DNA from: Candidatus Hadarchaeota archaeon
GTDB lineage: Archaea > Hadarchaeota > Hadarchaeia > Hadarchaeales > Hadarchaeaceae
DNA length: 32,000 nucleotides
Direction: 5' to 3'
Assembly (NCBI GenBank): GCA_964514965.1
Contig: CAZETV010000001.1
Span: forward strand, 180,001-212,000
The notes under the pieces were generated by a model that was not told the origin of the DNA, searched no databases, and saw only the letters and a list, made by a program, of their open reading frames with translations. Of this stretch, positions 4,394 to 24,745 are shown one piece after another (the first letter of the stretch is position 1; each line of letters starts with the position of its first letter). The position numbers and the translations under genes were made by a program.

Positions 4394-4488
4394 CTCCCGC
4401 TCATTTTTGGTTCTGAGCCTCGTTTGTAAAAGCTTTTCGCCACCAGAAAAGTCAACCCTCGATCGTGCAGTCCATTTATAAACGCTGA
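4394..4488 (-). promoter_or_regulatory. Putative CRISPR leader with a TATA-box-like element (tttataaa, 4475-4482)
   Basis: This is a 95-nt non-coding gap between the cas2 stop and the newest repeat. The palindromic TTTATAAA lies about 80 nt upstream of the first repeat in the minus sense. Confidence 0.4.
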
Positions 4489-4764
4489 CTAAATTATGCT
4501 CGAAACTTCGGCCTTCTCGATGCCCAAGACTTCTTTCTTCATCCATTTTTGGCTAGAGACAATGAAGAAGATTATCGAGTCCTCATCCTCTTTTATTCGC
4601 TTCCGCAGCCCAACCTTGACTTGTTCTAGCCCACCCTCGCTCAGTTCGCCTTCAAATGCCGAATTCTGGATCCAGTTGAGGTGTTGCCGGAGGAAATGCC
4701 TCACTCCGTCTATCCGCTCTACAGCGACATCATAAACAACTACAACGTAAATCTTCACCACCAA
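4489..4764 (-). CDS. cas2: CRISPR-associated endoribonuclease Cas2
   Basis: About 90 aa: ..KIYVVVVYDV......LRQHLNWIQNSAFEGEL..., the typical Cas2 ferredoxin-fold pattern. The start is ambiguous (TTG 4764, GTG 4761 or GTG 4758) and overlaps the cas1 stop. Confidence 0.85.
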   Translation of the reverse strand: MVVKIYVVVVYDVAVERIDGVRHFLRQHLNWIQNSAFEGELSEGGLEQVKVGLRKRIKEDEDSIIFFIVSSQKWMKKEVLGIEKAEVSSII

Positions 4765-5765
4765 GCCTTAAATCCCTCGTATTTTTGGCCGCCAATCAGA
4801 TGCTTTATGAGTTTGTAACATTCAAGCCTTACCAATCTCTGGTATGAAACTTTTCTCTTGAGCGCTGGATGGTTGATAGTCTTCCTGAGTTTATCGTCGT
4901 ACTCCGAGATGAAGGTTCGCCTGCCCTTTTCGTTCAGGTAACAAAAATTGAGTTCATCCTGAAAATGCTTCTCGCCGACCATACGGTTGTTCACCAACTT
5001 GAAAATCGTGCGATCAACGAGAATCGGCTTGAAGATCTCGCTCAGATCTAGGCTCAGGGAAAACCTCCGCTCGCCCGGCTCGTGCAGATAGCTTATCGTG
5101 GGGTTGAGCTGGGTGTGGTAGATCTCGGACAGGGTGCTCGTGTAGAGGAGGGAATTGCCGAAAGAAATCAGGCAGTTTATCATGTTGTCGGGCGGCCTCC
5201 GCACGCGCCGCTCGAACTCGAACCCCTCCCGCAAGATTGTGTTGAAGCTCTGGTAATAGTGGTCCCTGATCCTCCCTTCCACGCCCATGAGCTCTTGCAC
5301 ATCTTTTGTACCGTCGATCTGAGTTCTCTCCTGTTCTATCGCTTCCATCATTCCGCCCACGTCCTTGCCGTGCTTCTTGTAATGGGCGAGGTTCTTGAGG
5401 ATGTTGTGGCTCGCGGACCTGATTATTTCCTTGGCGATTTCGAGCCTCCTTTCTTTGCCCAAATAATTTTCGACCTGTTTAACCACCAAAAGACCAGACA
5501 CCAGATACTCGCGCGGATAGTAGCTCCCCGAATAGAACCCGTAGTAATTGAAAAAGTGCATCGGGATGCGGTTCTGGGCGAGGAAGACCATGAGCTTCGA
5601 GTTCACGTCCAGTTCCCCGAGTGCATATATCGCCTCGACGTTCGCCACGGGCATCGGTATTTTCTCCTGCCCTGCCTCCAAGTACAGGGTGTTTTCCTTC
5701 CGCCTCAGCCTCCCGCTTTTCAGGATGTAGTAGTTGCGCTTCACCTCAACACCAACACAACTCAT
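4755..5765 (-). CDS. cas1: CRISPR-associated integrase Cas1
   Basis: 336 aa. Motifs are NTLYLE..., MGVEGRIRDHYY, SYLHEPGERRFSLSLDLSEIFKPILVDR (the conserved E/H/D acidic-site context). It overlaps the cas4 3' end by 20 nt. Confidence 0.92.
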   Translation of the reverse strand: MSCVGVEVKRNYYILKSGRLRRKENTLYLEAGQEKIPMPVANVEAIYALGELDVNSKLMVFLAQNRIPMHFFNYYGFYSGSYYPREYLVSGLLVVKQVENYLGKERRLEIAKEIIRSASHNILKNLAHYKKHGKDVGGMMEAIEQERTQIDGTKDVQELMGVEGRIRDHYYQSFNTILREGFEFERRVRRPPDNMINCLISFGNSLLYTSTLSEIYHTQLNPTISYLHEPGERRFSLSLDLSEIFKPILVDRTIFKLVNNRMVGEKHFQDELNFCYLNEKGRRTFISEYDDKLRKTINHPALKRKVSYQRLVRLECYKLIKHLIGGQKYEGFKAWW

Positions 5766-6261
5766 AATAGCTGCACTTTTTGCAATAAGACTTCTTCCCC
5801 ACTGCTGGCGGTTCCGGGCTGGAGAGCACTTGCTTTACCTCCTCCAGAGTTTCTTCGACCTCCCTTTCTCCCTCCTCAGTCAGCTCGACCTCCTTTTTTC
5901 GCCTGAGGCGTGGATAATCGATTACCCCCTTTGCGGCGACTCCCCTCCGCTTCAGCCAGTAGAGGTAGTAGAGCATTTGGCCGATGTGGGCCGCCTCTAT
6001 CTTTCGGGAGCGCTTGATGTCGTGGACCTCGTTTCCGTGCTGGAGGAAGTCTATCTTGATTGGCCCGAGGTCTATCTCCTTTGTCTTACGGGGGTATGCC
6101 GTCTCATGCAACAAACTGCCCAGCATCACCCGGTCCGAGGAGTGCTCCATCCCTAGGGAGTGCGAGAAGAGCCAGAGCTTGCGCTTGCAGACGAAGTAGT
6201 AGTTGACCTGGGTGCCAGTGTAGGTGAGTTCTGGGGAAGGGATTTTCTTCATGGATTTCAC
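5746..6261 (-). CDS. cas4: Cas4 (RecB-like PD-(D/E)xK exonuclease with a 4-Cys cluster)
   Basis: It has an N-terminal Cys (YYFVCKRKLW) and C-terminal CKKCSYYELCWC, with DIKRSRK and QMLYY motifs. The GTG at 6261 overlaps the upstream ATPase stop (GTGA). An alternative ATG start is at 6252. Confidence 0.85.
   Translation of the reverse strand: MKSMKKIPSPELTYTGTQVNYYFVCKRKLWLFSHSLGMEHSSDRVMLGSLLHETAYPRKTKEIDLGPIKIDFLQHGNEVHDIKRSRKIEAAHIGQMLYYLYWLKRRGVAAKGVIDYPRLRRKKEVELTEEGEREVEETLEEVKQVLSSPEPPAVGKKSYCKKCSYYELCWC
6167..6216. repeat. 50-nt segment of the intact cas4 5' region, duplicated at 7782-7831 (47/50 identical)
   Basis: aagagccagagcttgCgcttgcagacgaagtagtagttgacCtgGgtgcc compared with aagagccagagcttgTgcttgcagacgaagtagtagttgacTtgAgtgcc, aligned by eye. 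Confidence 0.9.
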
Positions 6262-7703
6262 GCTTTAGGCGAAGTTGAGCTGAGGATTTTCTCCAAATCC
6301 CTCAAATCGAACAGGAAGTAGCCTTCATCCCTCATTTTCTCCTTCCCATCGATTTTTCTCGCCATCAGCCCGTAGAACTCCTTCTTTCTTTTGATGAACC
6401 ATTGAACGTACCCCGCTTTCCGCTTGAGTTCATCTAAAATATTTTTTGATTCTTTCAAACTCAAATCTCGCCATTTCGTCTCAACGAACAAAATTTTCTT
6501 TTCCTCCTCGTTTAAAGCCACCACGTCGATGTCGTACACATTTTTTCCCTTTTCCGCTGCCGGTATCTTGCCCCATTGCTTCCCGAATTTTGTAAATCGG
6601 AACGGCAGCTCGGCCACCATCTTTTGAAGGAGGAATTCTCTGCACAGCTTTTCAAAACGCGCGCCGATGAATGAATTTAACTGATCCTTGACGGTTCCCT
6701 CGAAGCTCGGATCCCTTCGTTCGTAGAGGGAATAATTTTTGTAAAAGAATCTGAACCAAAAATGCAAAAGCGGATGGTTTATGAAGATGAGTCCTTTTTT
6801 CTTTCCTCTTATCAGGGGCCTGTCGAGCCTCAGGATTTCAAAATAGTTTAAAAGTTCGTCCATTTGCCTGGTTATCGAGGTCTTCTCGGCCCTCAGGTAA
6901 CTGGCTATATCGGAAAAGGAATTGTTGCCGCTCGCGACCGCTTCCAAGATTGAGTAGTACAGCCCGGACCTCCTGCCGAACTCTTGGGAGAGGATCACCT
7001 GGACCTCATCCTCCAAGACGGCATCCTTTTGGAAGAAGAAAACACGCAGGATTTCTTCCATGCCTTTCCCCTGCAACCCGTTATCCTCCATGGCGACGTA
7101 GTACCTCGGGAAACCACCGAATATGGAATAAAGAGTCACTATCTCATCCATGTTTTTGAATTTCAGTTCTCTGCACATCTCAGCGACGCTTGGGAACTCC
7201 ATTGGCTTCAGGTCTATTTTGCGCTTGACCCTGCCGTAGAGAGGTTCCTTTCGGCCCTGGAAAATCTTTTTCATCAAGCCGACGGTGGAGCCAGTCAGGA
7301 TCATCATTAACGGCTTATCCTCGTTCAGGTCGAAGTTCTTCTGGAGGGTGCCAAAAACGGATTTGTCCACGAAGGCGAAATTTTGGAACTCGTCAAACAC
7401 GACGATTCCCCGGTACCTTTTCACCAAGGTTTCAAAGAACGACTCCCAGGAATTCACAACCTCGAGCTCACTTATGATTTTCCTCTGCCTCAGGAGCCTC
7501 GAAAACTCTAGGAGAAGAGCTTCGCTCGACTTGTTCCTGTTCACGAAGAAGTACAGCCCCCTGTCTTTCATGAATTCCAGCGCCAACCTTGTCTTTCCAA
7601 CCCTTCTGGCGCCGTATATAGCCGTGGGCCAAAATTTCTGCTTTGAGAGCCCCTCGATTTCCGAGAGGGTCTTGAGTTCGGCCGCCCTATTAATAAATCT
7701 CAT
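6258..7703 (-). CDS. P-loop ATPase with wHTH and a C-terminal PD-(D/E)xK-like domain (archaeal ATPase / DUF234-type architecture, COG1672-like)
   Basis: Walker A is IYGARRVGKTRLA and Walker B is GIVVFDEFQNF. There is a central wHTH-like segment (YYSILEAVASGNNSFSDIASYLRAEKTSITRQMDEL). The C-terminal motif is VYDIDVVAL...ILFVETKWRD (D...ExK). The likely start is the ATG at 7703 (MRFINRAAELKTL); the track start GTG 7727 lies inside the operator-like palindromes. Confidence 0.75.
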   Translation of the reverse strand: MRFINRAAELKTLSEIEGLSKQKFWPTAIYGARRVGKTRLALEFMKDRGLYFFVNRNKSSEALLLEFSRLLRQRKIISELEVVNSWESFFETLVKRYRGIVVFDEFQNFAFVDKSVFGTLQKNFDLNEDKPLMMILTGSTVGLMKKIFQGRKEPLYGRVKRKIDLKPMEFPSVAEMCRELKFKNMDEIVTLYSIFGGFPRYYVAMEDNGLQGKGMEEILRVFFFQKDAVLEDEVQVILSQEFGRRSGLYYSILEAVASGNNSFSDIASYLRAEKTSITRQMDELLNYFEILRLDRPLIRGKKKGLIFINHPLLHFWFRFFYKNYSLYERRDPSFEGTVKDQLNSFIGARFEKLCREFLLQKMVAELPFRFTKFGKQWGKIPAAEKGKNVYDIDVVALNEEEKKILFVETKWRDLSLKESKNILDELKRKAGYVQWFIKRKKEFYGLMARKIDGKEKMRDEGYFLFDLRDLEKILSSTSPKA

Positions 7704-7705
7704 GT

Positions 7706-7736
7706 ATTCACCTACTGAATAATTCACTTACTGAAT
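7706..7736. promoter_or_regulatory. Two tandem 15-bp palindromes (ATTCA-N5-TGAAT) between a TATA-like element and the ATPase start codon
   Basis: The palindromes are attcacctactgaat (7706-7720) and attcacttactgaat (7722-7736), offset by 16 bp. atatatttaaat follows directly (7736-7747; TTTAAATATAT in the minus sense). Confidence 0.5.
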
Positions 7737-7781
7737 ATATTTAAATGCTTGCGTCGGCTGGTCGAGCTCGCACCAAAGATT

Positions 7782-7870
7782 AAGAGCCAGAGCTTGTGCT
7801 TGCAGACGAAGTAGTAGTTGACTTGAGTGCCCGCAAAAGTTAATCTTTCAGATAACGCCGTAAGATTCAA
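7782..7870 (-). pseudogene. cas4 5' remnant (first ~29 codons) fused to unrelated sequence, immediately after cas3
   Basis: Minus-strand translation from the TTG at 7870 (TTGA overlap with the cas3 stop) gives NLTALSERLTFAGTQVNYYFVCKHKLWLL, then unrelated IFGASSTSRRKHLNIFSK*. Intact Cas4 reads KKIPSPELTYTGTQVNYYFVCKRKLWLF. The first codons are diverged and AT-richer, and the next 50 nt are 94% identical to 6167-6216. Confidence 0.8.
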
Positions 7871-10593
7871 ATTACATTTGATTGGATTTCGTCGCCTTCT
7901 ATGTTTATCTCTTTTATTTTATTAATTCCGTACTTTTCGATGTTCTTCAAATCAATTCCATCAATTTTTAAAACAACAAACCCCTTGAAGTCTTTACGTT
8001 CTGTTAACATCCTATGTTTTTCATAAGAGAATGTTGGTAAATTGAACGAATGCAAATAAAGGATTTTCAATAATTCCCACTTATTCACTTTATTTTCTAA
8101 ATTATTATCGCCAACTTTTTCTTTCACTTTATTAATAAGAGAATCGCCATCCTTACTTTCCCAAGGTAGTTTCCAGTTATTTTTATCGTTTATAACTTCA
8201 CCAAAAGCCCTTTCTATCTCATTTTCTGATTTAGACATAATATCTGGGATAACTACCTGAAGTCCGGCGATAGTTCTAAAAATTTTTTGAGCCTCACTTC
8301 TTTTTTCAGCAGCGAAATATTTTAACCATTCTAAATTTTTCTCTATTTCTTCCACATAAATTTCTTTAAGAGATTTTCCATTTATTTTCTCTTCAAATGT
8401 CTTTTCTATCATCTCTCGCTCTTTTTCATAATGCAATTCTACACTTTCGTTGCGTTTTAATATTTCGAGGCTTTTTTCAATAACTCTCGTGTCGTATACG
8501 GCCTTTGTTCCTTTATCAGTTCCCGTAAATATAATGACGTTCGGCGCGGCGTCTTTATAATCTCCCTCTTTGTCTCTGTTTCTATAAATCCTCCCCCATC
8601 TCTGGATTTGACTATCAATCGGAGATGCCTCTGTGATTAGAATGTCAAAATCCACATCAACGGATGCTTCTACAATCTGAGTTGAAACTAGAACCAGTCT
8701 ATCGCTTTCGGTTATGAGCTTTCCATTCTCTCTTTTATTTTTTAAAGTGCATAATTTTTCTTTTACGTCTTTTATTGTCTTGTTTTTTCTTTTTTCAATT
8801 AATCTTGAATGAAGTAGGTGGAGATTACCTTTATTAACACTCAAATTTTGTGAGTCACTTTCTATACGCTTGAACAGTTCAATGGCCTTTCCCACGTTGT
8901 TGACAATTATTAGAACATTCTTGTCTCTTCCCTCATTCAAAATTTTATGTATCTCTTTGAAAGAATCTTCGTTTATTTTCAACTCAAAATTTCCATTCTC
9001 TTTTGATTGCTCATAAGAAAATAAAGTGCCATCGTTCAATCTAATTTTATGTCTCTTGAAATTGTAATTCTTTATCCTATTTCTTAAGTTTATCCATTTT
9101 TCATTTTGTAAATCTATAACACTATCTTCCCCGAAATTGCGTTTTTCAAAAAAGGGTTTAAAGTAAGGGGGGAATGTTGCGGTTATGACAAGGATGTTTC
9201 CATTGAGTGATTTTATTATTTCTAAAGTTTTGATAATGATGGCCGCCATTTCAGGATTGTAGGCTTGTATTTCGTCTATGACTATAGATGAAACTGGATA
9301 AATAGAAATCACTTTATCGGAACCGTAATATTTGAGAGAGGTAAGGAAAATTTGATCAGGTGTTGATAAAAGTATAGGGTAAGAAAAGAGTTTTGAAGAA
9401 TTTAACTTGCTTTCTACACTTAGCTCTTCGCCTTCTTTCTCTTCTTTTAAAAATTCCATAAAAGCTGTTGAATGTAAAATCCCAACGTCTTCACCTCTAC
9501 CGCCAAAATAAGGCAATTTCTCATCTGTCGCAAATCTTACAAACAGGTCATTTAGTGCAACTCTCAACGGCAAAGTGTATAACAGTTTCTTTCCATTGTC
9601 TTTTGCCCACATTAACGCAAATTCTGTTTTACCGGAGCCTGTCGGAGCCACTAAAACAATATTTTGTCTATTGAGATTTTTCAGTACATCTTTTTGCCAG
9701 AGGTTAAATTTTGCGGATTGGAATTTGATTTTGTTGATTATATTTTCTTCTAGCTTATCGAATATTTCAGAAACGGTTTTATTGGTTTCTATGCGAACTT
9801 TGCCACTGGCAGAATAATCGCATCTTCTCAGAGTACCGAGAAAAACAAGAAATTCGTGATCTGGTTTATCATTGTCTATTTCGTGGAATTTTATCAACTG
9901 TGAAACATTGTAACCTTTGCTAATTTGCTGACTGAGACTATCTAATCTGTTCATGTCAACATTATTTTCTAGTTTATTTAGGATGTCTAAAACAAAATTG
10001 CTTTTCTTTATTTCATTATCGCTTTTTAAACAAAGAATCAGATTACTAAGCAGAGATTTAATTGCATCTTTTTTACTCAGCAAAAATTCAGTATATTTTT
10101 CTATGTCCGGGTATACATCAAGAATATTTCTGAAATTTGGAATCTCGTTGACATAAAAGCTGTTGTGGTGATGTAATAAAATCGCTGTTCTGACTTTAGC
10201 ATCCCAATCGCTATTTCTCAACATTAGCTGGGAGTAAACTATTGAAAGTGCTTCATGATCATTGACATTTACTTTCCATTTTTGTCCATCTGTATCAAAA
10301 AATTTTTTTATTTGTTCCCATTCATTTTTGTATGTATTCTTTTTTTCATCGTCGCAGAAGACTTTTTTCTGAAAACTATAATCTATCTTGCCCATATCGT
10401 GTAGACTCATAGCAATAGCCAAATTTTTAAAAAACTCATCGTCAAATTTAAAGGAAATTTTCTCTCGGTTCTTATTTACAAACTCCTGAAACTGAATAGC
10501 TCTCAATAAAACTTCCTTTAAATGATCTTTTAGTAAGAAATTGTTGCCTTCTTTTGATTTAGCCCTCAGGCAATCAAGTATTTTCTCTGTCAT
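7867..10593 (-). CDS. cas3: Cas3, HD nuclease fused to an SF2 helicase
   Basis: 908 aa. HD motifs are LKDHL, SLHDMGKID, AILLHHHN and RRCDYSAS. Helicase motifs are VLVAPTGSGKTEFAL (I), IVIDEIQAY (II), VITATFP (III) and VSTQIVEASVDVDFD...QRWGRIYR (V/VI). The gene is strongly AT-rich. Confidence 0.92.
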   Translation of the reverse strand: MTEKILDCLRAKSKEGNNFLLKDHLKEVLLRAIQFQEFVNKNREKISFKFDDEFFKNLAIAMSLHDMGKIDYSFQKKVFCDDEKKNTYKNEWEQIKKFFDTDGQKWKVNVNDHEALSIVYSQLMLRNSDWDAKVRTAILLHHHNSFYVNEIPNFRNILDVYPDIEKYTEFLLSKKDAIKSLLSNLILCLKSDNEIKKSNFVLDILNKLENNVDMNRLDSLSQQISKGYNVSQLIKFHEIDNDKPDHEFLVFLGTLRRCDYSASGKVRIETNKTVSEIFDKLEENIINKIKFQSAKFNLWQKDVLKNLNRQNIVLVAPTGSGKTEFALMWAKDNGKKLLYTLPLRVALNDLFVRFATDEKLPYFGGRGEDVGILHSTAFMEFLKEEKEGEELSVESKLNSSKLFSYPILLSTPDQIFLTSLKYYGSDKVISIYPVSSIVIDEIQAYNPEMAAIIIKTLEIIKSLNGNILVITATFPPYFKPFFEKRNFGEDSVIDLQNEKWINLRNRIKNYNFKRHKIRLNDGTLFSYEQSKENGNFELKINEDSFKEIHKILNEGRDKNVLIIVNNVGKAIELFKRIESDSQNLSVNKGNLHLLHSRLIEKRKNKTIKDVKEKLCTLKNKRENGKLITESDRLVLVSTQIVEASVDVDFDILITEASPIDSQIQRWGRIYRNRDKEGDYKDAAPNVIIFTGTDKGTKAVYDTRVIEKSLEILKRNESVELHYEKEREMIEKTFEEKINGKSLKEIYVEEIEKNLEWLKYFAAEKRSEAQKIFRTIAGLQVVIPDIMSKSENEIERAFGEVINDKNNWKLPWESKDGDSLINKVKEKVGDNNLENKVNKWELLKILYLHSFNLPTFSYEKHRMLTERKDFKGFVVLKIDGIDLKNIEKYGINKIKEINIEGDEIQSNVI

Positions 10594-11406
10594 CTAAAGC
10601 CATCCATTATCAAGTATTTTAAACTCTGCACCATTGACGTTATAAACTTCCATTCTTGTTTCACTATTCAAAATAATACTATAATCATTTCCTGTATAAA
10701 TTACAGTTCCAAATTTTGGTTTTCTTTCTGTTTTTTTAGTTATTTCAGATTTTGATTTAACCGGAGCGTCGCCATTCATAAATCTTACCTCTACTGGTAT
10801 GGAATAAACCGGGTATTTCTGTTTTTTAAGTCGAAACTCTTTTTCCTTAATGTAAGTGGGATATTTTATCTTAACGTCTGTAATATTTTCAACGGTATCT
10901 GCCGCATTTACTTCTTGCACATGTTCTATGAAAACAACATCTTCACTTCTTCCTAACGACAATACTTTCTTCGGATGTTCTAAAGATTCTTTTATTTTGC
11001 CAATTAACTTTTCCTCCCCTCTAATAAAAAGAAATATACGACCGTTGAAAAGTTCCTGTTGATGCACAGGTGATCTTTGAGAGGTTATACCTTGCCCATA
11101 TAATGGCAAATTTTGATTTACGAGAACAAGTTTCCCATCCTTTTGTTGTAACTCTGTTTTCCCCTTTATTAAATTTTGATAGTTCCAAAAAGCATTTTCA
11201 AATCCGCCATGCATGCTAACTTTTAATTTCCACCAATTATCAATACCAAATCCGTTGCCATACCAATCGTCACATGCATTTTGGAGCATTCCAATTACAG
11301 TAGATTTTGGTGGTAATGGATAAGTTTGTGCGTAATAGAAAGTAAAGGGGTTTCGATATTGAGCAAATGGCTGAAATAATTCAATAAAAAGTATTTTTTC
11401 TACCAT
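10594..11406 (-). CDS. cas5: Cas5 (Cas5t/Cas5h-like)
   Basis: The N-terminus FIELFQPFAQYRNPFTFYYAQTYPLPPKSTVIGMLQNA matches the Cas5 signature (FR.P....TYPLPPPST.IG). The gene abuts the cas3 start. Confidence 0.8.
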   Translation of the reverse strand: MVEKILFIELFQPFAQYRNPFTFYYAQTYPLPPKSTVIGMLQNACDDWYGNGFGIDNWWKLKVSMHGGFENAFWNYQNLIKGKTELQQKDGKLVLVNQNLPLYGQGITSQRSPVHQQELFNGRIFLFIRGEEKLIGKIKESLEHPKKVLSLGRSEDVVFIEHVQEVNAADTVENITDVKIKYPTYIKEKEFRLKKQKYPVYSIPVEVRFMNGDAPVKSKSEITKKTERKPKFGTVIYTGNDYSIILNSETRMEVYNVNGAEFKILDNGWL

Positions 11407-11438
11407 TCTGCCACCATAAAGATGATACTGATGATTAT

Positions 11439-12437
11439 TTAACCCAAAAATTTCTCAACTTTCTCAATAACATTTTTTTCATTTAATTCTTTTGTATCTA
11501 TTTTTGAATAAACGCTACACAACTCTTTTCTATTAAATACACTAACATTTTCACCATTCTCTCCTAACGCTATGTTAAAGGAAGGTATTATGTTATCTTC
11601 GACTTCATTCTCTATAATTTCTAAATCGCCGTCTTTTTTGTACTTTCTTTTTATCTTGTATTGTGTCTTTCTTTCTAATCTTATTTTATTCAAATAGGAT
11701 TCGTATTTTCCATTATTATATAGACCTAAAACAATTAACCATGGCGATAAATCTTCTCTTCGACCTTTAATGTCTCTCTTAAGATTTAGAATTGTCTCGA
11801 TAAATTTTATAATCCTTTCCTTAATAACTTCGTCGCCTACCTTGATATCCCCAATTTCTTCTTTACCATGCTCATCTTTTAAAAAATTACCAACTCTATT
11901 AACATCGATTGTAATATTATAAATATAGAAATCTGGTTTCTCCTCTATTGTGACAGGATTACTGCCTTCTCCACCAGCCCTCTTCATCATGTCCAAATTG
12001 GCCATTGTATGGGTATCCAAATTGTAAGGTGTTAGTGAGATAGCATGACTTATCTTTACGGGGGAAACTCTTGTTAGTGCTGCCTGTCCTTCTTTTGTTA
12101 TCATAAAACCAAATAAATCAAATTCAGGAAAACCAGCAAAAACGTTTTGGTTAATTTCGTTTAGTCCAGCTACGCCACCTTCTCTAACTACAAGTTCCTC
12201 AGGTCCTGCTAGTTTCCATGTCTCTGGGAAAAGGTGATTTGCCCAGTGCAAAATACTATATCTGAGCGCATATCTGCTCACTAATGCGTATTGTCTGCCA
12301 TCCCACTTCGTTATCTTCTTGAGCGGTTGATAGTTAGTTCCGCCACCCCAATCGTAATTCAGAGAACTTCCATAGAAAACGATGTCTAGAACTATAAACT
12401 TTTTATCACTTTTTTTATTTTCATTTGTTTTATTCAT
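11439..12437 (-). CDS. cas7: Cas7 (Csa2/Cst2/DevR-type backbone subunit)
   Basis: GSSLNYDWGGGTNYQPLKKI....YALVSRYALRYSILH is the typical Cas7 I-A/I-B N-terminal pattern. The gene overlaps the upstream small ORF by 8 nt. Confidence 0.8.
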   Translation of the reverse strand: MNKTNENKKSDKKFIVLDIVFYGSSLNYDWGGGTNYQPLKKITKWDGRQYALVSRYALRYSILHWANHLFPETWKLAGPEELVVREGGVAGLNEINQNVFAGFPEFDLFGFMITKEGQAALTRVSPVKISHAISLTPYNLDTHTMANLDMMKRAGGEGSNPVTIEEKPDFYIYNITIDVNRVGNFLKDEHGKEEIGDIKVGDEVIKERIIKFIETILNLKRDIKGRREDLSPWLIVLGLYNNGKYESYLNKIRLERKTQYKIKRKYKKDGDLEIIENEVEDNIIPSFNIALGENGENVSVFNRKELCSVYSKIDTKELNEKNVIEKVEKFLG

Positions 12438-12795
12438 TTTCCTTACCTTTGACCTTGTTTTGATATGTACTCATGATACCAATAATTATTGAATAAGCAA
12501 GATTTATAAACGCTTCATCTGGCAAAATATCATAGTTTTTTTCTAGCTCATCCCACAATTTTTTGAAATTTTCCTTTGGTTTATTAATAGACCTCAAAAG
12601 CAGGTAGAAGAATCTATTTTGATTTTTATTTTTTACGGACTCCAGTAAATCAAAAACTAGTCTTTGTTTGTAATTATCAGATTCGCTTATAAAAGAATCT
12701 TTAGCAGCATTTTTAAATTCCCACAACTTTAATTCTTTAGACTTTTCTCCAATTTTTAGTTCCCACACCGCTTGTTTTATCTCATCATCCATCAT
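12430..12795 (-). CDS. 121-aa predicted all-helical protein between cas8 and cas7; candidate standalone small subunit (Cas11/Csa5-like). Function unproven.
   Basis: It is tightly coupled on both sides (ATGA overlap with the cas8 stop, 8-nt overlap with the cas7 start) and has the same AT-rich composition as the interference module. Its size and position match csa5 in csa5-cas7-cas5-cas3 arrangements. I recognise no sequence motif. Confidence 0.45.
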   Translation of the reverse strand: MMDDEIKQAVWELKIGEKSKELKLWEFKNAAKDSFISESDNYKQRLVFDLLESVKNKNQNRFFYLLLRSINKPKENFKKLWDELEKNYDILPDEAFINLAYSIIIGIMSTYQNKVKGKENE

Positions 12796-14546
12796 CTATA
12801 CACCAGACCTGCTGTTAAGCATAATGCATACCTTGGCCAGCTTAATTCATTATCTACTATTTTATTAAACACCCAATTTAAAAAGCCTTTGTTGATAATT
12901 TCTTTGCGGTTGTTTAGAGATTTAAGTAAAACAATAAGAAAACCAGCTTTATCATTTGCGTATAAAGAATCAAGAAGAAGATAAGCAATTTTCTCTCTCA
13001 TTTTCAAATCTGGGATTAGTCTTTTTGTCTCTTGGGTTGAGTAATAAAAAGTACTTGGGAATGTCCTTTTGACTTGAGTTACCATTTCTCTATAATTCTC
13101 AGAGAAAAAGATTTGAGAAAATAACAGACTACTATTTTTTTCCTTAAACTCCAAAATTACGGCCTCAATCAAAAGAGCATAAAATACGGAGTAATTTGGG
13201 TACCTACTCTCGTCGATAGAAACTTTTACGTGTTGCAAAACCAATGGGTAAAGAGGTTTTCCTTTTATGAATTCTTTTAGAAGCCATACATATTTATCCC
13301 CCTTAAGATATTTAGGTCCAACTTGAATTCTTTTGTTCATCGCATCTCTAATCCTGTCGTCTAAAACAATAGAAGCTCGAAGTTTCGGAATGCCTATAAA
13401 TTCTACATCTTTTAACTTTAGATTTTCTATTCCACCGAATTCTATTATATACATGTTCTCTAAAGAAAAATCTACCTTTTTCTCAATAATAGTGTCGATT
13501 ATAGCAGTCCAAGTTATTTTGAACATATCTGTCCTTCTCCCTTTCCTTTCTTTATATAGAGCGAATTTTTTGTTAATTTCGTATGAACTTTCTAATAAGT
13601 TGGTATAGAACATCAAGTTTCTCCCTTCGATAAACTGGAAAGAGTTTCCAAATGATAAAAGCAATAAGTATAATGGTTGTTTAACATTTAACCACTCCTC
13701 AACCATAATTACTTTCGGGAGATCGGTATAACCGATGTTTGGAAATTCACCAGGCGAATACAAAAAAGGGTTTATCGTGGAATCTGCTCGAATTTCATAA
13801 GTCAAACCATCTTTCTTTTTCTTTTCGCTTATTTTAGAAGCAAATTTACGTAAATTTGAATAATCTTCTTTTAGCAAATACCAAAGGTAAACGAATGAAG
13901 TATACAGATCTTTTTTAGGATTATAGATGAAAAAATTCCTATGGTCTTTAGGTAATTTCAGATCACAGCTATGAATAAGCGACTTTATATCTTCTTTTTT
14001 TTCTTCAACGTTTACTAGAATGCCAAAAATTTTGTTTTCTATATTTTGTTTAAACTCATCTAATTCTTTTATTAGATTTTTCTCTTTGTTAGAAATCTCA
14101 TTATTGCATTGTATGATTTCATTTTTGAATTGAGTGATTTTTTTATTTTCCTTTTCAATTTTCTTATCTTGAGATTTGAGTTTAGATGGCTTTTCATTAG
14201 ATTTAATTTTCTTACTCTCGTTAATTAAATCTCTCAATTTTTTCTCAGATTCTCTTAATTTGACTCGTAAGCCTTTTTTTGGGTCTGTAATTTTTTTTCT
14301 TATGCCGCTAATTTCACTTCTAACTGTTCTAATTCTAGAATGGTAGAATAAGTACGCAAACGGAAAATATCCATAATAAATCAATTCCTTATTTTCCCTA
14401 ATCCTCTTTCGCAGCTCTTCCAAATCCCATCCATAGACTTCTTCCATCAAATTTACAAATCCGAGAATTCCTGCATCTATAAACCAATTACCTGTGAATT
14501 GTAGTGTATTATGACTTGATTCAACAATTTTTGTTCCCATATTCAT
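12792..14546 (-). CDS. cas8: Cas8 large subunit (Cas8b/Cst1-like) with a Lys/Glu/Asn-rich coiled-coil-like insert
   Basis: It occupies the first position of the cas8-cas7-cas5-cas3 operon. The N-terminal FTGNWFIDAGILGFVNL resembles the conserved N-terminal motif of Cas8b-like proteins. The likely start is the ATG at 14546 (GGTGA 4 nt upstream); the track TTG start at 14570 lies inside the cas6 remnant. Confidence 0.7.
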   Translation of the reverse strand: MNMGTKIVESSHNTLQFTGNWFIDAGILGFVNLMEEVYGWDLEELRKRIRENKELIYYGYFPFAYLFYHSRIRTVRSEISGIRKKITDPKKGLRVKLRESEKKLRDLINESKKIKSNEKPSKLKSQDKKIEKENKKITQFKNEIIQCNNEISNKEKNLIKELDEFKQNIENKIFGILVNVEEKKEDIKSLIHSCDLKLPKDHRNFFIYNPKKDLYTSFVYLWYLLKEDYSNLRKFASKISEKKKKDGLTYEIRADSTINPFLYSPGEFPNIGYTDLPKVIMVEEWLNVKQPLYLLLLSFGNSFQFIEGRNLMFYTNLLESSYEINKKFALYKERKGRRTDMFKITWTAIIDTIIEKKVDFSLENMYIIEFGGIENLKLKDVEFIGIPKLRASIVLDDRIRDAMNKRIQVGPKYLKGDKYVWLLKEFIKGKPLYPLVLQHVKVSIDESRYPNYSVFYALLIEAVILEFKEKNSSLLFSQIFFSENYREMVTQVKRTFPSTFYYSTQETKRLIPDLKMREKIAYLLLDSLYANDKAGFLIVLLKSLNNRKEIINKGFLNWVFNKIVDNELSWPRYALCLTAGLVYR

Positions 14547-14550
14547 GTTC

Positions 14551-14704
14551 TCACCCCACCATGAAACCAAACCCCAGCGAGTTCTCCTCCCTGAACCCCG
14601 CGTCCAACCCGAACTGAATCACATCTTGCTTTTTCCCCGTCCAGATAATAGGAGAACCCCCAGATGGAACCAAAAATCTCGCCATTCATTCCGAACCCAA
14701 CTCT
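14551..14704 (-). pseudogene. cas6 3'-terminal remnant (about 51 codons, frameshifted) abutting the cas8 start
   Basis: Minus-strand translation gives RVGFGMNGEIFGSIWGFSYYLDGEKARCD, then a +1 frameshift, then IQFGLDAGFREENSLGFGFMVG*. Intact Cas6 reads HVVFGGKEVKVLGSLWRFMFSYLDEMRREILQFGLDAGFGELNSLGFGFMNVVR*. Between ctggac and cagttc there are 22 nt here and 21 nt in the intact gene. About 80% nt identity over the last 20 codons (by eye). An in-frame stop lies just upstream at 14705-14707. Confidence 0.85.
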
Positions 14705-15246
14705 TCAACTCTCCTTTTCAGCCCGGCCAGCTCATCCTCCACTCCCATCTCCCTGCAGATCTCTTCCAGATACTCTAGATTCAGCTTCCCGAGCTGCCTT
14801 ACGAATATCCCCTCCGCATCTTTTAAATCTTGCTCGCTCCCGAACACCAGCTTGTTGGCGATGATGTCCTCGGGAGAAGCGATGTAAATATCGGTCCCCT
14901 TGTATTTGAACGATGTCCTCCTCTCGAAAGTGCGCTTGTCCATTTCGTTGCAAATTCCTTTAATATCCAACCTGAACATCGACCTCTTGTCCTGAACGAT
15001 GCAGTGGAACCGTTCTTTCAACGCCCTCCTCAGGCCCTCAGCGCTTGCAAAAAAATCATTCCGACTCAAGAACTCGGCCAGCTTCGGCGTGTCCTCCTCT
15101 TTGATCTGCAGAATCAGGTCTATGTCCATCGTGGTCCTCGAAAGACCGTGGAAGTTCACCACCAAGCCACCTACCATGACGTAACCTATGCGTGCCCTGC
15201 CAAGGAACCCGCACACGAGCGACAATATCTCATCTATTTCCCGCAC
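14686..15246 (-). CDS. Minimal nucleotidyltransferase-fold protein (Pol-beta superfamily, toxin-like)
   Basis: 186 aa. IGYVMVGGLVVNFHGLSRTTMDIDLIL fits the GG..(x)..HG..R.T.DIDL NTase active-site pattern. It has a GTG start that overlaps the upstream 65-aa ORF by 17 nt. Its last 7 codons overlap the cas6 remnant in another frame. Confidence 0.65.
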   Translation of the reverse strand: MREIDEILSLVCGFLGRARIGYVMVGGLVVNFHGLSRTTMDIDLILQIKEEDTPKLAEFLSRNDFFASAEGLRRALKERFHCIVQDKRSMFRLDIKGICNEMDKRTFERRTSFKYKGTDIYIASPEDIIANKLVFGSEQDLKDAEGIFVRQLGKLNLEYLEEICREMGVEDELAGLKRRVEELGSE

Positions 15247-15427
15247 TTTTACTCGCCTCGTGGATTTCTACCGCAAACTTGATCAGGTCCAATCCCTGCT
15301 CGAAGGTTTCCTCCCCTGAGAAACGCCGGGCGCGAACGGCATCCCGCCTCAGCTCCCTGGCCCGGACCTCCTTCACCCTCCTCCTGAACTCCTCGAGGTC
15401 CCTACGTTTGAACGCGCTGGCCTTCAT
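15230..15427 (-). CDS. 65-aa Arg/Glu-rich helical protein, putative partner (antitoxin-like) of the NTase
   Basis: It has an ATG start and overlaps the NTase start. The C-terminal half SGEETFEQGLDLIKFAVEIHE resembles the small partners often found upstream of minimal NTases (from memory). No search was run. Confidence 0.5.
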   Translation of the reverse strand: MKASAFKRRDLEEFRRRVKEVRARELRRDAVRARRFSGEETFEQGLDLIKFAVEIHEASKSAGNR

Positions 15428-15478
15428 GTTCCGCCTCCGGAGGCGCCATTAGGGACATTTCCACCACGTGAATATTGT

Positions 15479-15495
15479 CTCACCACGTTCATAAA
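15479..15495. repeat. 17-bp perfect direct repeat (ctcaccacgttcataaa), copy 1; identical to the last codons of intact cas6
   Basis: Exact match to 16870-16886. In the minus sense it encodes FMNVVR. Confidence 0.85.
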
Positions 15496-15527
15496 AAAAA
15501 ACCACGGTCAACTTTTGGAAAGGAAAC

Positions 15528-16736
15528 TCAGATCACGGCCAAAAATAGGGGTAGGGTGTCCTCATCCAGTACCTCCACGCTTTTGGGGTACTTCCTGTGC
15601 GGTTTCCCCGCCTTCACCTCTATTTTCAAATCGGCCGCCATGCAATCTATCTCATAGGAATTTCTGAAGTAGAAAACTTCCCCAAATTTTCTGGACAAAT
15701 GTGACTGGACCACCCACTCATACAGAGCGCCCTTCAGAAACTCCTGCCCGCTCCAGAGGGACAAACTCCTAGCCATGAAGGGGTCGATGAAAAATACTTT
15801 CTTCTCCTTTCGGTGCAGGATCTTTTCCCCCTCCTTACATCTCGCCAAATCCAGGATGAGCAGACTTTTCAGCAGCTCCAGATATTCGGCCACGGTTTTG
15901 TAGGAATACCCGGAGGTATCCTTGGATATCGTGGTATAGCCGAGCGGGGAAGGGGCCTTTTTGAATATCGAGGAAAGCACCTCCCTCGATAGGGAAACGC
16001 TCCTGCCCAACCTCAGGACCTCCCCCTCGAACGCCCTTATGAAATCCTCATCCGCCCTTGGGTCCCCGTTTATCGAGAGCGGAAATCCACCTTTCTTCAG
16101 ATAATCCCCAAACGCTCGCTTTATCTCCTCTTCCTGGACGGCGGCTTTTTTCGCGTCCTTGTTCGCGTCCCCGGTGGTCTTTATCTTTACACCGTGGACC
16201 TCCAAGAATTCCCTGAAACTCAAGGGGTAAACAGTTATCTCCCTCCCCATTCCCCTCCGCCCGGGAAAAAACTCCACATCCCCCCTCAGTTTTAGGGAGG
16301 AGGAACCTGTTATGGTCAAGACATCGTCCTTGAACGCGCCCAGGTCCACGTATCCTTTTACGACCCTCCACCAGCCTTTTACCCCTGTGACCTCGTCCAA
16401 AAAAATAAAGCTAGAACCATGGCCGAGAGACCTTCTGAATTCCAGATAAGCATCCATAACTTTTCTCAGCGAGTATGCGTCCGGGGAGAGGTCACAGTTG
16501 AAGTAAAATATCCTCTCCGCCTCTACCTTTTTCAGCAGATCGTCGACCATGAGCTTTAATCCAGTTGTTTTGCCTATCTGCCTCGGCCCGATGACGAAGT
16601 TCAATGAAAAGGACTTCAGCGAGATGTCTTTTATCCAGTTCGGCACCCATTTAATCCTCATCCCTTCCCATTTCGCAAAGTGATAATCTTTTTCCCCCTT
16701 CCACCAAGGGTTATGCCTTATCACGAGGTTTCTCAT
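15528..16736 (-). CDS. P-loop ATPase with a C-terminal PD-(D/E)xK-like domain (AAA_14 + DUF4143-type architecture, COG1373-like)
   Basis: The N-terminal ...RHNPWWKGE is typical of this family. Walker A is VIGPRQIGKTTGL and Walker B is SFIFLDEVTG. The C-terminal motif is YEIDCMAADLKIEVKAGK (D...ExK). The gene has its own AT-rich upstream region with TATA-like ttataag/ctataaa elements (16737-16790). Confidence 0.75.
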   Translation of the reverse strand: MRNLVIRHNPWWKGEKDYHFAKWEGMRIKWVPNWIKDISLKSFSLNFVIGPRQIGKTTGLKLMVDDLLKKVEAERIFYFNCDLSPDAYSLRKVMDAYLEFRRSLGHGSSFIFLDEVTGVKGWWRVVKGYVDLGAFKDDVLTITGSSSLKLRGDVEFFPGRRGMGREITVYPLSFREFLEVHGVKIKTTGDANKDAKKAAVQEEEIKRAFGDYLKKGGFPLSINGDPRADEDFIRAFEGEVLRLGRSVSLSREVLSSIFKKAPSPLGYTTISKDTSGYSYKTVAEYLELLKSLLILDLARCKEGEKILHRKEKKVFFIDPFMARSLSLWSGQEFLKGALYEWVVQSHLSRKFGEVFYFRNSYEIDCMAADLKIEVKAGKPHRKYPKSVEVLDEDTLPLFLAVI

Positions 16737-16865
16737 GATAGAATTTATAGTTCTAACTACTTATAAACATTTAGAAACCTAACTTCCATTATTGAACGGC
16801 TCCGTCCTGAATCCCAATTCTCCCTCTTAACTTCATCTCTCTGCCACGTTGATATTTTTGAACCG

Positions 16866-17642
16866 TCACCTCACCACGTTCATAAATCCAAACCCGAGCG
16901 AGTTCAGCTCTCCGAACCCGGCGTCCAGTCCGAACTGCAATATTTCCCTCCGCATTTCGTCCAGATAACTGAACATGAAACGCCAAAGGGAGCCCAGAAC
17001 CTTCACCTCCTTTCCCCCGAACACAACGTGGGCGCAGGCCGTGTTCATAAACTCGAACTGCTCGAATATCGGGGACTCCTCAATCGCCTTGCCGTAAAAC
17101 TCGCGATATTTCTTGAACAGATTTTCCTCCAGCTGCCTGACGAACGGCTCGAACGGCCATTGCTCCCTCCAGTAGATGTAATCGTAATCCTTGGGCGGGA
17201 CGATGCCGTACTTCTCAAATTTCTCCTTGGGTATGCGGAGCACGATGGGCGTGCCGGTGATCAGCCTGCAAGACCTGCCGATTCTGGGCTCGAGCGGCTT
17301 CACCGACTCAACGCCGAACGACATGTCCCCGATGTTAACGGGCACCCGCTCTTCCATTATGCGCTCCAATTTGTCGTTCAGGAGTTTTATGATCCCGACC
17401 TCCGGGGAGGATATCAGAAATTGCCTGAGCTCACCCTTCTCCATGCTCTCGGACGGATTCTCTTTCGTGCCCTTTGGTGGAAAGATGTTCGAGAAGCAGA
17501 AGAACTTGTACCCCCGCCTGTCGTGAAGTTTGACATACGGCGTTTCATTGAGCAGGCCATAGATGAAACCCTGGAGCTTGCGGTGATATTTCAATTCATA
17601 CGCTTGGTTCTTCAACGACTTCAATTTGATAAGGAGCCTCAT
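16866..17642 (-). CDS. cas6: Cas6 crRNA-processing endoribonuclease
   Basis: 258 aa. The N-terminus is MRLLIKLKS...YELKYHRKLQGFIYGLL. The C-terminal glycine-rich loop is GLDAGFGELNSLGFGFMNV, the Cas6 hallmark. G+C is like cas1/cas4, not like the AT-rich interference genes. Confidence 0.88.
   Translation of the reverse strand: MRLLIKLKSLKNQAYELKYHRKLQGFIYGLLNETPYVKLHDRRGYKFFCFSNIFPPKGTKENPSESMEKGELRQFLISSPEVGIIKLLNDKLERIMEERVPVNIGDMSFGVESVKPLEPRIGRSCRLITGTPIVLRIPKEKFEKYGIVPPKDYDYIYWREQWPFEPFVRQLEENLFKKYREFYGKAIEESPIFEQFEFMNTACAHVVFGGKEVKVLGSLWRFMFSYLDEMRREILQFGLDAGFGELNSLGFGFMNVVR
16870..16886. repeat. 17-bp perfect direct repeat, copy 2 (inside the cas6 3' end)
   Basis: ctcaccacgttcataaa, identical to 15479-15495. 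Confidence 0.85.
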
Positions 17643-17660
17643 TACATCAAGCCTACACAG

Positions 17661-18824
17661 CTAAAGTCTGCGAATCTCCGCTACCCGCTCCAAAGACTCC
17701 TCTTCCTTAGGAGCCAGCGGTTTTTCCTGCGTCCATACCGGTAGGGGTCTCCTCTGCATCTTGATCCGCTGGAACTCTCTCCCGGCCTTGAGCTTCTTCT
17801 CCTTCGAGGTCTTCCTGATCGCATCGATGCCGGGCTTGACTCCCTCGAGATCGAGCACGTCAAGTTCCTCAAATCTCCGGGCAATATCGAAGGCGTCGGA
17901 GCCAGTTTGCGTTCGGACGAGCACCGTGGACCTGCCGAGGGGTGACCCTGCCGCACCCACCGAGATGTCCGCGAGCTCAGCCGCGAAGTCCATACACACT
18001 TTGCACGGTTGACAAACGTACCGCTCCACCGATTCTAAAGCAAGCTCGCGCCTTGGTTTTTGCTTGAGGTAGATGATGAATCGCCCCCGTTTAATGTCGA
18101 ACTTCACGACCTCGGTGAGGTGAGTGCGAAGCTGATTCTGGATGACGCCCCTGAAAAATTTCTCGTATTCAAAAGCGTGAGTACAGAACAATCCTATGCG
18201 GAGCGCGATCGCCCCACCCAAACGGCGGTTGGTCAGCTCCGAGAGCTGCATCCGGCGCGAGGCGATAATCTGGCAAGGTGTACCGACAATTGCCACCCGC
18301 GAGGAGTAGTGCAGGTCAACGGCGTCTCGCAACCCCAAGAAGAGCGGCCCCATTGCATACTTCGAACCTGCGCACTCCATGAGTTCTTTGCGGCCCTTCG
18401 CAAACCTAGGGGTGGGCTGCCACGGCAGAGCCCCCACACCCATAACGATCGCGCCATCGATGAACCCGTTTTCGATGAGAGACGCCAGAAGCGCGGTGAC
18501 AGCCCCGCCATCTTGGGCGCGCGTCTTGATGTCGGGAGACTTCGCACAGACCGAAAGCGCTCGTTGATAGACACCGAACACCTCCTCGTCCGAAGCCTTT
18601 CTCCCAAAAATTTTTTCCTCGAGCCGCCTAAAATCGATCACCTGCGGACACTCATCGTAGCATATGCCGCAGTTTACGCAAGCCTTCTTTAAAACTGGGG
18701 TCACACCTTCCATCGCGAGGCACTCGAACGGGCAGGAGGCGACACATGCCCCGCAGGCGAGACAGTAACCGGGAGTCGTCACCTCCTCTATGAGATCATT
18801 GAATACTTTAGCCGTTCCCACCAC
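17661..18824 (-). CDS. Coenzyme F420 hydrogenase/dehydrogenase beta-subunit family protein (FrhB/FpoF-like) with an N-terminal 2x[4Fe-4S] ferredoxin domain
   Basis: The two Cys clusters are CLACGACVASCP and CVNCGICYDECP. They are followed by an FrhB-like body (AQDGGAVTALL...VGTPCQ). The stop is only 18 nt upstream of the cas6 ATG. Confidence 0.7.
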   Translation of the reverse strand: MVGTAKVFNDLIEEVTTPGYCLACGACVASCPFECLAMEGVTPVLKKACVNCGICYDECPQVIDFRRLEEKIFGRKASDEEVFGVYQRALSVCAKSPDIKTRAQDGGAVTALLASLIENGFIDGAIVMGVGALPWQPTPRFAKGRKELMECAGSKYAMGPLFLGLRDAVDLHYSSRVAIVGTPCQIIASRRMQLSELTNRRLGGAIALRIGLFCTHAFEYEKFFRGVIQNQLRTHLTEVVKFDIKRGRFIIYLKQKPRRELALESVERYVCQPCKVCMDFAAELADISVGAAGSPLGRSTVLVRTQTGSDAFDIARRFEELDVLDLEGVKPGIDAIRKTSKEKKLKAGREFQRIKMQRRPLPVWTQEKPLAPKEEESLERVAEIRRL

Positions 18825-18961
18825 CCCCAGTTAGAATTTTGACACCCCCAATGGATAGAGTGCGAGCAAAGTAAAGCCGTTTCACGTGCGCCCCTCAGCG
18901 ATTTTAAATTGTGAACTAAGTTTTATAAATTAACACACCAGGGCAAAAGCACCGCCTAGAA

Positions 18962-21977: not shown

Positions 21978-22110
21978 TCGTTTTCACCAATAAAAGCGAA
22001 GTAAAAAGTTAAATATATAGTTTTCTATAGTACGCTTTTTAATATATAGAATATTTGGATAACTCATAAATAATCCATTTTCTATATATAATTCAAAAAA
22101 AGAGGATAAA

Positions 22111-22950: not shown

Positions 22951-23005
22951 ATCTGAAAAAGCCGCAGCAGCATCTTTGCCATCTTTATTTTTTTGAGGTA
23001 TATTT

Positions 23006-24744: not shown

Positions 24745-24745
24745 G

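Follow-up and report, generated by a model that had tools for sequence, protein, structure and literature searches.

In the 32,000-nucleotide stretch of DNA analyzed here (the window; positions 180,001 to 212,000 of the 1.03-Mb contig CAZETV010000001.1 from the Candidatus Hadarchaeota assembly GCA_964514965.1), the interference operon of a type I-B CRISPR-Cas locus has very probably been exchanged in place for one from a low-G+C pool, while cas6, the cas4-cas1-cas2 genes and the CRISPR array stayed. All the features of this locus are on the minus strand, and their order from upstream to downstream runs from cas6 to the array. The block in question (about 7823-14546, 6.7 kb) is an intact effector operon, cas8b-cas11b-cas7-cas5-cas3, with full-length matches of all five genes to type I-B profiles, and its G+C content is 32.0%, compared with 49.6% for the remainder of the window, the host being a Hadarchaeota-like archaeon of about 50% G+C. 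The nature of the replacement event is already documented, and the locus represents a new and unusually clear instance of it.

The first-pass annotation, made from the sequence letters, had proposed a sharply bounded AT-rich block on the basis of G+C counts in six 60-nucleotide lines, and a recount gave 25, 38, 27, 60, 50 and 52%, the fifth having been put at about 48%. The abrupt change at both ends of the block was confirmed by sliding windows, in which the G+C content falls from about 0.49 to about 0.32 across roughly 7.8-14.5 kb, and the 500-nucleotide windows inside the block (mean 0.321, standard deviation 0.026, maximum 0.372, n = 25) differ clearly from those beyond it (mean 0.496, standard deviation 0.052, n = 96). 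A maximum-likelihood fit of two change points, run over positions 4400-18900, placed them at 7834 and 14549, with 2-unit support intervals of 7685-7868 and 14530-14572; compared with a single segment, the log-likelihood rose by 279, and the fitted G+C contents were 0.320 for the block and 0.49 and 0.53 for the flanks. At the cas8 side the switch occurs within the 4 nucleotides that separate the stop codon of a GC-rich gene remnant (14551-14553) from the cas8 ATG (14546), and at the cas3 side it lies about 45 nucleotides past the cas3 stop codon (7867-7869), at about 7822, inside a remnant of the 5' end of cas4. The same break is seen gene by gene. In the block, cas3, cas5, cas7, the 121-amino acid open reading frame (ORF) and cas8 have G+C contents of 0.29-0.335 and values at third codon positions (GC3) of 0.24-0.31, whereas the flanking cas2, cas1, cas4, DUF234 ATPase, DUF6036, 402-amino acid ATPase and cas6 genes reach 0.47-0.54 and 0.59-0.76, respectively. 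The host-like composition that had been ascribed to cas6, cas4, cas1 and cas2 therefore holds.

Such a sharp break could also be produced by an assembly chimera, i.e. by a misjoin of an effector contig from a low-G+C organism into a Hadarchaeota locus, and the probable metagenome or enrichment origin of the sequence and the 25-nucleotide exact repeat shared by cas4 and its remnant would both favor such an error. However, the contig SRR14802574_8476 (L001 in our locus numbering), which Logan assembled from run SRR14802574 alone, agrees with the window at 100% identity from 4364 to 15765, i.e. over 11.4 kb, and spans both junctions. This independent single-run assembly makes chimerism very unlikely. 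The 25-nucleotide word, the longest exact one shared by cas4 and the remnant, is also shorter than the Logan k-mer, which we take to be 31, and a misjoin at that repeat would not account for the succession of a truncated remnant, an ATPase gene and a second, intact cas4. Moreover, three other loci (L008, L005 and L050) have orthologs of the host-type remnants and slot edges, and two independent misjoins would be needed that happen to enclose one complete operon and nothing else, one end having a TTGA overlap of start and stop (7867-7870) and the other a 4-nucleotide gap. We consider a chimera hardly credible.

To compare the histories of the effector and adaptation genes, all window proteins were searched by tblastn against 125 fetched loci, and neighbor-joining trees with bootstrap were built for Cas1 alone and for Cas7, Cas5 and Cas3 combined. 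The incongruence for which the first-pass annotation had proposed a test was found. In the Cas1 tree the window falls into a nine-locus clade with 100% bootstrap, together with L047, L048, L049, L005, L008, L050, L051 and L052, the Cas1 relatives showing 95-96%, 84-85% and 76-78% identity. None of the eight other members has the effector of the window wherever the effector is readable; L047, L048, L005, L050, L051, L052 and L008, with Cas1, Cas4 and Cas2 at 75-95% identity, all lack it. In contrast, the Cas7+Cas5+Cas3 tree places the window in a low-G+C clade with 96% bootstrap, whose members are labeled Heimdallarchaeum, Pacearchaeota, Aenigmatarchaeota, Anstonellaceae, DHVE2, Methanoperedens, Caldiserica, Omnitrophota and a "Saccharibacteria" bin. 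The loci with the most similar effectors (L002, L074/L076, L017, L019, L021 and L028) have Cas1 at 44-62% and Cas6 at 38-51% identity to those of the window, and their G+C content does not exceed 35% throughout their sequence. The closest effector relative, L002/L003, has the same gene order (cas6-cas8-117-amino acid ORF-cas7-cas5-cas3-cas4) on a contig of 27% G+C, where the neighboring housekeeping genes are equally AT-rich.

Two further observations concern these low-G+C loci. Comparison of the L074 effector with that of L002 gave identities of 82% for Cas8, 94% for Cas11, 82% for Cas5 and 87% for Cas3, yet only 47% for Cas7, which suggests that cas7 alone was exchanged between them. In addition, the L009/L003 contig CAZKFX010000020.1, labeled "uncultured Candidatus Saccharibacteria bacterium", carries an archaeal-style I-B locus in a context of 27% G+C, and the label of this bin may be unreliable.

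The same slot holds other effectors in the close relatives of the host locus. Within the single Cas1 clade with 100% bootstrap, and behind one 30-nucleotide repeat (identical to that of the window in L008, L050 and L051), at least four I-B effector variants occur, including that of the window. They match different PADLOC models for Cas8b and Cas7, and all four are AT-shifted with respect to their own flanks, the window being the extreme case. The most informative locus is L008, whose upstream flank shows 88.7% DNA identity to the window over 1,080 nucleotides (window positions 15630-14561), the end of the ATPase gene, a 65-amino acid ORF and the DUF6036 gene being 93-100% identical over most of their length. 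Downstream, the cas4-cas1-cas2-array segment is 72% identical. Between these flanks L008 harbors a Csh1/Csh2 (HMARI-type) effector with a G+C content of 0.39-0.43, bordered by a cas6 remnant that breaks off where that of the window does (a 50-amino acid ORF at this position matches Pfam Cas6_C) and, after cas3, by a cas4 remnant. In a second pair, L005 and L050, the identity beginning with the first base of cas4 is 96.6% (99% for Cas1), and the effectors and cargo genes upstream of this point are unrelated.

As for the architecture of these other occupants, the TM1802-type cas8b of L008 (L008:1097-3025) occupies two separate ORFs, of 202 and 438 amino acids, and L005 has an ORF of 94 amino acids whose match to a Cas8b model falls at the C-terminal end (profile positions 310-398 of 401). 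These two cases suggest that small-subunit-like pieces are separately encoded in several slot occupants.

The scars that the first-pass annotation expected at the junctions are present, namely a 44-codon remnant of the cas6 3' end beside the cas8 ATG and a mosaic remnant of the cas4 5' end after cas3. The cas4 remnant ORF (7781-7870) reads (L)NLTALSERLTFAGTQVNYYFVCKHKLWL and then loses register with Cas4. Its TTG start overlaps the TGA stop of cas3, and it consists of a donor-type start of 16 codons (7823-7870), the last of the DNA regarded as imported, and of a host-type part, codons 17-30 (7781-7822). At the protein level the N terminus is ambiguous, and the informative tests were an anchored nucleotide comparison and codon composition. 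When the nucleotide comparison was anchored on the Gly codon, the 51 nucleotides downstream matched the cas4 genes of the host clade at 42-47 positions and donor-like cas4 genes at 28-36, whereas the 36 nucleotides upstream matched cas4 of L002/L074/L076 at 21 positions and those of the host clade at 9-12; 2,700 random 36-mers gave 9.9 ± 2.7 matches, with a maximum of 19. In the codon analysis, GC3 changes from 5/16 to 13/14 at codon 16/17 (Fisher p = 8e-4), and the ACT-CAA codons are of the L074/L076 type, the next ones, GTC-AAC-TAC-TAC, being of the host type. The mosaic identity and the GC3 switch point to a crossover at about 7822, within the conserved coding stretch for G-T-Q-V-N-Y-Y, and this position indicates that the imported fragment carried the start of the donor's own cas4. 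Furthermore, the remnants of the window and L008 have a derived CAC codon in common where all intact cas4 genes have CG(C/G/A). This shared codon suggests that the remnant is older than the swap and served as its right-hand homology arm.

The left junction has a different appearance. The cas6 remnant (14551-14685) is GC-rich at third positions up to its stop codon and cas8 is AT-rich from its first codon, and the AT-rich cas6-cas8 spacer of about 45 nucleotides found in donor-like loci is absent. The lack of a homology footprint makes a purely homologous double-crossover model incomplete, and this join appears from the sequence to be non-homologous or to have been trimmed later. Identity of the cas6 remnant amounts to 76% with the 3' end of the window's own cas6, 82% with the intact cas6 of L005 and about 69% with the remnant of L008. 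The last value, beside an adjacent gene that is nearly identical in L008, indicates that the remnant itself may have been exchanged, possibly via an intermediate. These observations at the left edge have led us to consider an import in two steps, in which the module would first have been grafted beside a GC-normal cas6 and cas4 in a Hadarchaeota-like strain, plasmid or virus and would then have reached this locus by homologous recombination in the remnants. Besides the divergence of the remnant from that of L008, its greater closeness to L005 cas6 than to its own cas6 and the loss of donor-type spacer sequence would be accounted for in this way. Nevertheless, the known plasmids and phages in the collections contain no close relative of the block (best Cas7 identity, 35%); the block has no mobility genes or attachment sites of its own and contains the five cas genes only; and the donor-type cas4 start is still joined to cas3, so that a direct graft fits as well. 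We therefore regard the two-step route as somewhat unlikely.

Returning to the replacement in place, whatever its number of steps, several observations weigh against it or limit it. A search of 5.8 billion proteins yielded no near-identical donor, with top identities of 68% for Cas7 and 46-58% for Cas8, and the best DNA match to the block reached 66.5%; the near-identical low-G+C relatives that the first-pass annotation had proposed to search for thus did not appear. An exact-protein look-up of Cas7 likewise gave no match, although the gene is present on the Logan contig that was reached via Cas1. The effector tree leaves the nearest neighbor of the window unresolved (55% bootstrap), and because of this no donor lineage is named. 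At the junctions, the split point of the GC3 comparison in the cas4 remnant was picked post hoc and its p value is uncorrected, and no donor-type or homology footprint exists at the cas6/cas8 boundary. Finally, the effector family keeps a GC3 of 0.13-0.42 in all 22 other loci in which it was compared (L014, L026, L037, L044 and 18 others), even where the background GC3 is 0.49-0.60, and the three Archaeoglobaceae loci L026, L030 and L037, which share the effector family (Cas5 at 80-85% and Cas3 at 67-69% identity; Cas1 at 85% between L026 and L037, with no Cas1 match in L030), still show an effector GC3 of about 0.32.

The latter data could be explained if the effector were a long-term resident whose low G+C content is kept by selection or by a local mutational bias, without transfer into the lineage. 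Its GC3 never exceeds 0.42 on any host background, the Archaeoglobaceae loci show no amelioration, and the AT shift of all four effector variants of the host clade would fit as well. On the other hand, the eight other members of the fully supported Cas1 clade carry three other effector variants and in none of them that of the window, L008 has conserved flanks around an unrelated effector, and the cas4 remnant is a mosaic of donor and host sequence. We know of no mechanism that keeps synonymous sites 0.4 under the host value, which also counts against long residence. Taken together, these results make a resident origin very unlikely, and replacement by import remains the preferred reading.

The first-pass annotation had described the whole unit as recently imported from a low-G+C donor. 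The import is upheld by the incongruent trees, by the occupancy of the slot in L008 and by the junction scars, but its recency is not established. Across the 22 effector-family loci, cas6 and cas4/cas1/cas2 follow the local background (GC3 of 0.14-0.60, and up to 0.63 in these genes), and in loci from Archaeoglobaceae, DHVE2 and Aquificota the effector GC3 lags 0.19-0.29 behind it. Because GC3 is low throughout the family whatever the host, low G+C is no reliable clock, and AT-richness alone does not prove a recent arrival. There are two possible readings of this behavior: the effector may be replaced more quickly than it can ameliorate, or its composition may be kept as it is.

According to the model that we propose, cas6, cas4-cas1-cas2 and the array would form the stable core of the host locus, and the operon between cas6 and cas4 would have been swapped for a complete cas8b-cas11b-cas7-cas5-cas3 operon from a low-G+C pool that would take in DPANN, Asgard and some bacterial lineages. 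The imported DNA would extend from the cas8 ATG (14546) to a point 16 codons into the donor cas4 (7823). Its right end would have been joined by a homologous crossover within the G-T-Q-V-N-Y-Y stretch of the pre-existing cas4 5' remnant, and its left end, by a non-homologous event or one trimmed later, straight after the pre-existing cas6 3' remnant. The module may be expressed by coupled translation with, or read-through from, the host genes upstream; the genes lie 0-4 nucleotides apart or overlap, tight to those upstream genes, which fits co-transcription. The imported effector would then load CRISPR RNAs (crRNAs) cut by the resident Cas6, and selection for new effector variants may drive the exchange.

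The question of whether an imported Cascade could use the crRNAs of the resident system can be addressed by comparing repeats. The resident repeat has 30 nucleotides and ends in the 8-nucleotide handle ATTGAAAT, and an intact Cas6 is present. In all donor-like loci with an array the repeats end in ATTGAAA(N), those of L018, L031, L034 and L037 ending in ATTGAAAT, and the L020 repeat is closely similar to the resident one along its whole length. Because donor-like repeats share the ATTGAAA(N) handle, and because one resident repeat goes with four effector variants in the host clade, the imported Cascade is expected to be compatible with crRNAs made by the resident Cas6. The array (2856-4395), preceded by a leader at 4396-4488, contains 24 copies of GTTTGAATCGGACTAGTGTAGTATTGAAAT and 23 spacers, with a degenerate terminal repeat at the 2856 end. 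Three 26-nucleotide spacer cores searched for protospacers in viral_contigs gave no match. Spacers 14 (3472-3506) and 13 (3537-3571) differ at 2 of 35 positions (GGCATACTGCGAGCG... and GGCATAATACGAGCG...) and seem to derive from the same protospacer, which would have been taken up twice, each time from a different variant of the target; their near-identity is a hint of ongoing adaptation.

The gene assignments of the block rest on profile matches. The large-subunit gene cas8b (12792-14546; 584 amino acids, G+C content of 0.31) starts at the ATG at 14546, its N terminus can be aligned with those of its relatives, and it matches PADLOC PDLC01542 (E = 4.3e-101, profile positions 4-571 of 574), with no Pfam or NCBIfam match. 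The ORF of 121 amino acids (12430-12795; 0.29) had been listed simply as a small gene of the interference module; its place in the effector stands, and it is now specified as the small subunit Cas11b by PADLOC PDLC01541 (E = 7.5e-22, positions 3-95 of 98), again with no Pfam or NCBIfam match. It is followed by cas7 of the Cst2/DevR type (11439-12437; GC3 of 0.285; TIGR02585, 169.9 against a cut-off of 72.75), by cas5 (10594-11406; GC3 of 0.24; TIGR01895, 104.7 against 96.7, and PADLOC) and by cas3 (7867-10593; G+C content of 0.323, GC3 of 0.31), which combines HD and helicase domains, exceeds the cut-offs of TIGR01587 and TIGR01596 and matches PADLOC Cas3b (E = 2e-128), with nearly complete domain coverage at the profile level (positions 1-177 of 178 in TIGR01596 and 2-357 of 358 in TIGR01587). 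All five genes are regarded as imported.

Upstream of the block, the picture of the first-pass annotation had to be corrected, in that cas6 does not adjoin cas8. The true, intact resident cas6 lies at 16866-17642 (GC3 of 0.76; Pfam Cas6_C and Cas6_I-A; PADLOC Cas6b, E = 2e-55; 78% identity to L005 Cas6). The 186-amino acid ORF next to the block (14686-15246), which was considered as a candidate, is ruled out as cas6, since it encodes by its Pfam match a DUF6036/AbiEii-like nucleotidyltransferase, a resident cargo gene whose product is 88% identical to the L008 orthologue. The start of this gene is overlapped by the 65-amino acid ORF (15230-15427), called also in L001 and L008 and showing about 97-100% DNA conservation with L008, which is a possible partner of the nucleotidyltransferase. 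A further cargo gene, at 15528-16736, encodes an ATPase with AAA_14 and DUF4143 domains that matches the PADLOC candidate defence family PDC-S01. Downstream of the block are a cargo ATPase with ATPase_2 and DUF234 domains and host-like G+C content (6258-7727; PADLOC candidate defence family PDC-S27), the intact resident cas4 (5746-6261; GC3 of 0.73; TIGR00372, profile positions 2-179 of 180), whose start, by alignment of its N terminus with relatives, is likely the ATG at 6252, the type I-B cas1 (4755-5765; GC3 of 0.72; TIGR03641, 478.6 bits against a cut-off of 304.1) and cas2 (4489-4764; GC3 of 0.59; TIGR01573).

The cargo located directly upstream of the intact cas4 differs in every locus of the Cas1 clade with enough sequence. 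It comprises ATPase_2/DUF234 (PDC-S27) genes, AAA_14/DUF4143 (PDC-S01) genes in either orientation, and AbiEii with a 190-amino acid ORF, at 6258-7727 in the window, L008:8201-9484, L051:3-1136 and L005:8329-9485 and, on the reverse strand, at L047:1-1221, L050:5838-7253 and L052:3-821. Where the region is visible, the cargo sits between the cas4 5' remnant and the start of the intact cas4, and the site resembles a hotspot for insertions, bordered by a directly duplicated cas4 5' end. A stretch of 37 nucleotides upstream of the start of the DUF234 ATPase gene (7701-7737) is 92% conserved at L008:8064-8100, before an unrelated AAA_14 ATPase gene, and it contains the tandem motif TTCAGTA(A/G)GTGAAT (7706-7719 and 7722-7735), found nowhere else in the window. 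This stretch may represent a common element for regulation or recombination.

A broader interpretation, which we consider unlikely, is that the cas6 3' and cas4 5' fragments are landing pads and that the locus is a cassette-exchange hotspot to which low-G+C effectors are resupplied from an AT-rich pool, e.g. from DPANN episymbionts. If this were true, recombination in the conserved termini of the genes would swap whole effector operons between the pads, ATPase and toxin genes of the defence type would enter between each remnant and its intact counterpart, and the resupply would be too fast for amelioration in GC-richer hosts.

Elsewhere in the window, a milder second region of low G+C content (0.39-0.47, GC3 of 0.37-0.54) extends from 20916 to 26169 and is related to phosphate transport, with a PhoU-MazE fusion, a PstS-like binding protein, a permease and further downstream ORFs. 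Other genes encode two CofE proteins, an FrhB-like protein, a luciferase-like oxidoreductase and a class I lysyl-tRNA synthetase, the named relatives of the latter being from Hodarchaeaceae and Hadarchaeales (61-73% identity); the description of the host as Hadarchaeota-like is based on these synthetase relatives.

With regard to its significance, the locus leaves the current understanding of CRISPR-Cas evolution unchanged, but it makes two published ideas concrete, i.e. that I-B adaptation modules can work with almost any I-B effector and that turnover is more rapid in effectors than in adaptation genes, since four I-B effector variants stand behind the same repeat and adaptation module. It could serve as a test bed for comparing the protospacer adjacent motif (PAM) preference of the imported Cas8 with PAM selection by the resident Cas4-Cas1-Cas2, and for the use by Cascade of crRNA cut by the resident Cas6. 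The failure of a whole effector family to ameliorate in GC-richer hosts raises, in addition, a small question on turnover rates.

Among known systems, the AT-rich horizontally acquired genomic islands resemble the block in their sharp discontinuity, phylogenetic incongruence and conserved insertion site; however, the block lacks an integrase, a tRNA target and direct-repeat attachment sites, and it replaces a functional equivalent and adds no new cargo. The likeness to defence islands with PDC-S01 and PDC-S27 lies in the presence of AAA_14/DUF4143, ATPase_2/DUF234 and AbiEii/DUF6036 genes inside the cas operon, variable among relatives, and the difference is that the cargo of the window is placed exactly between the truncated and the intact version of one gene, cas6 or cas4. 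To our knowledge, cargo between a remnant and an intact copy of the same cas gene is a geometry that has not been described. The type I-B Cst (TNEAP-like) Cascade/Cas3 module with a separate Cas11b has the same genes as the block (Cas8b, Cas11b, Cas7 of the Cst2/DevR type, Cas5t and HD-helicase Cas3) in the canonical order, with a 30-nucleotide repeat and an 8-nucleotide ATTGAAAT handle as a further common feature, and the block differs from it only in composition and in the mismatch with the neighboring adaptation genes.

The closest parallel is the in situ effector exchange described for type I-A, I-B and I-D loci by Hudaiberdiev et al. 2017 (PMC5704561) and Koonin and Makarova 2019 (PMC6452270), in which the adaptation module, array and cas6 remain fixed and the effectors are replaced, also by other Cas8 clusters within I-B. 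This exchange has been attributed, as a hypothesis, to an arms race with anti-CRISPRs (PMC6452270). As in the exchanges of PMC5704561, the clade of the window combines related adaptation genes with different effector clusters, and flanking synteny is kept on both sides, at 88.7% upstream and 72% downstream in the comparison with L008. In the main text of PMC5704561, no mention of breakpoints or hot spots was found. Compared with these published cases, the window goes modestly further in that its junctions can be placed at a resolution of a few nucleotides, including the crossover inside cas4, in that the GC3 gap is extreme, at 0.43, and in that truncated cas6 and cas4 genes mark the edges of the slot, with variable cargo alongside.

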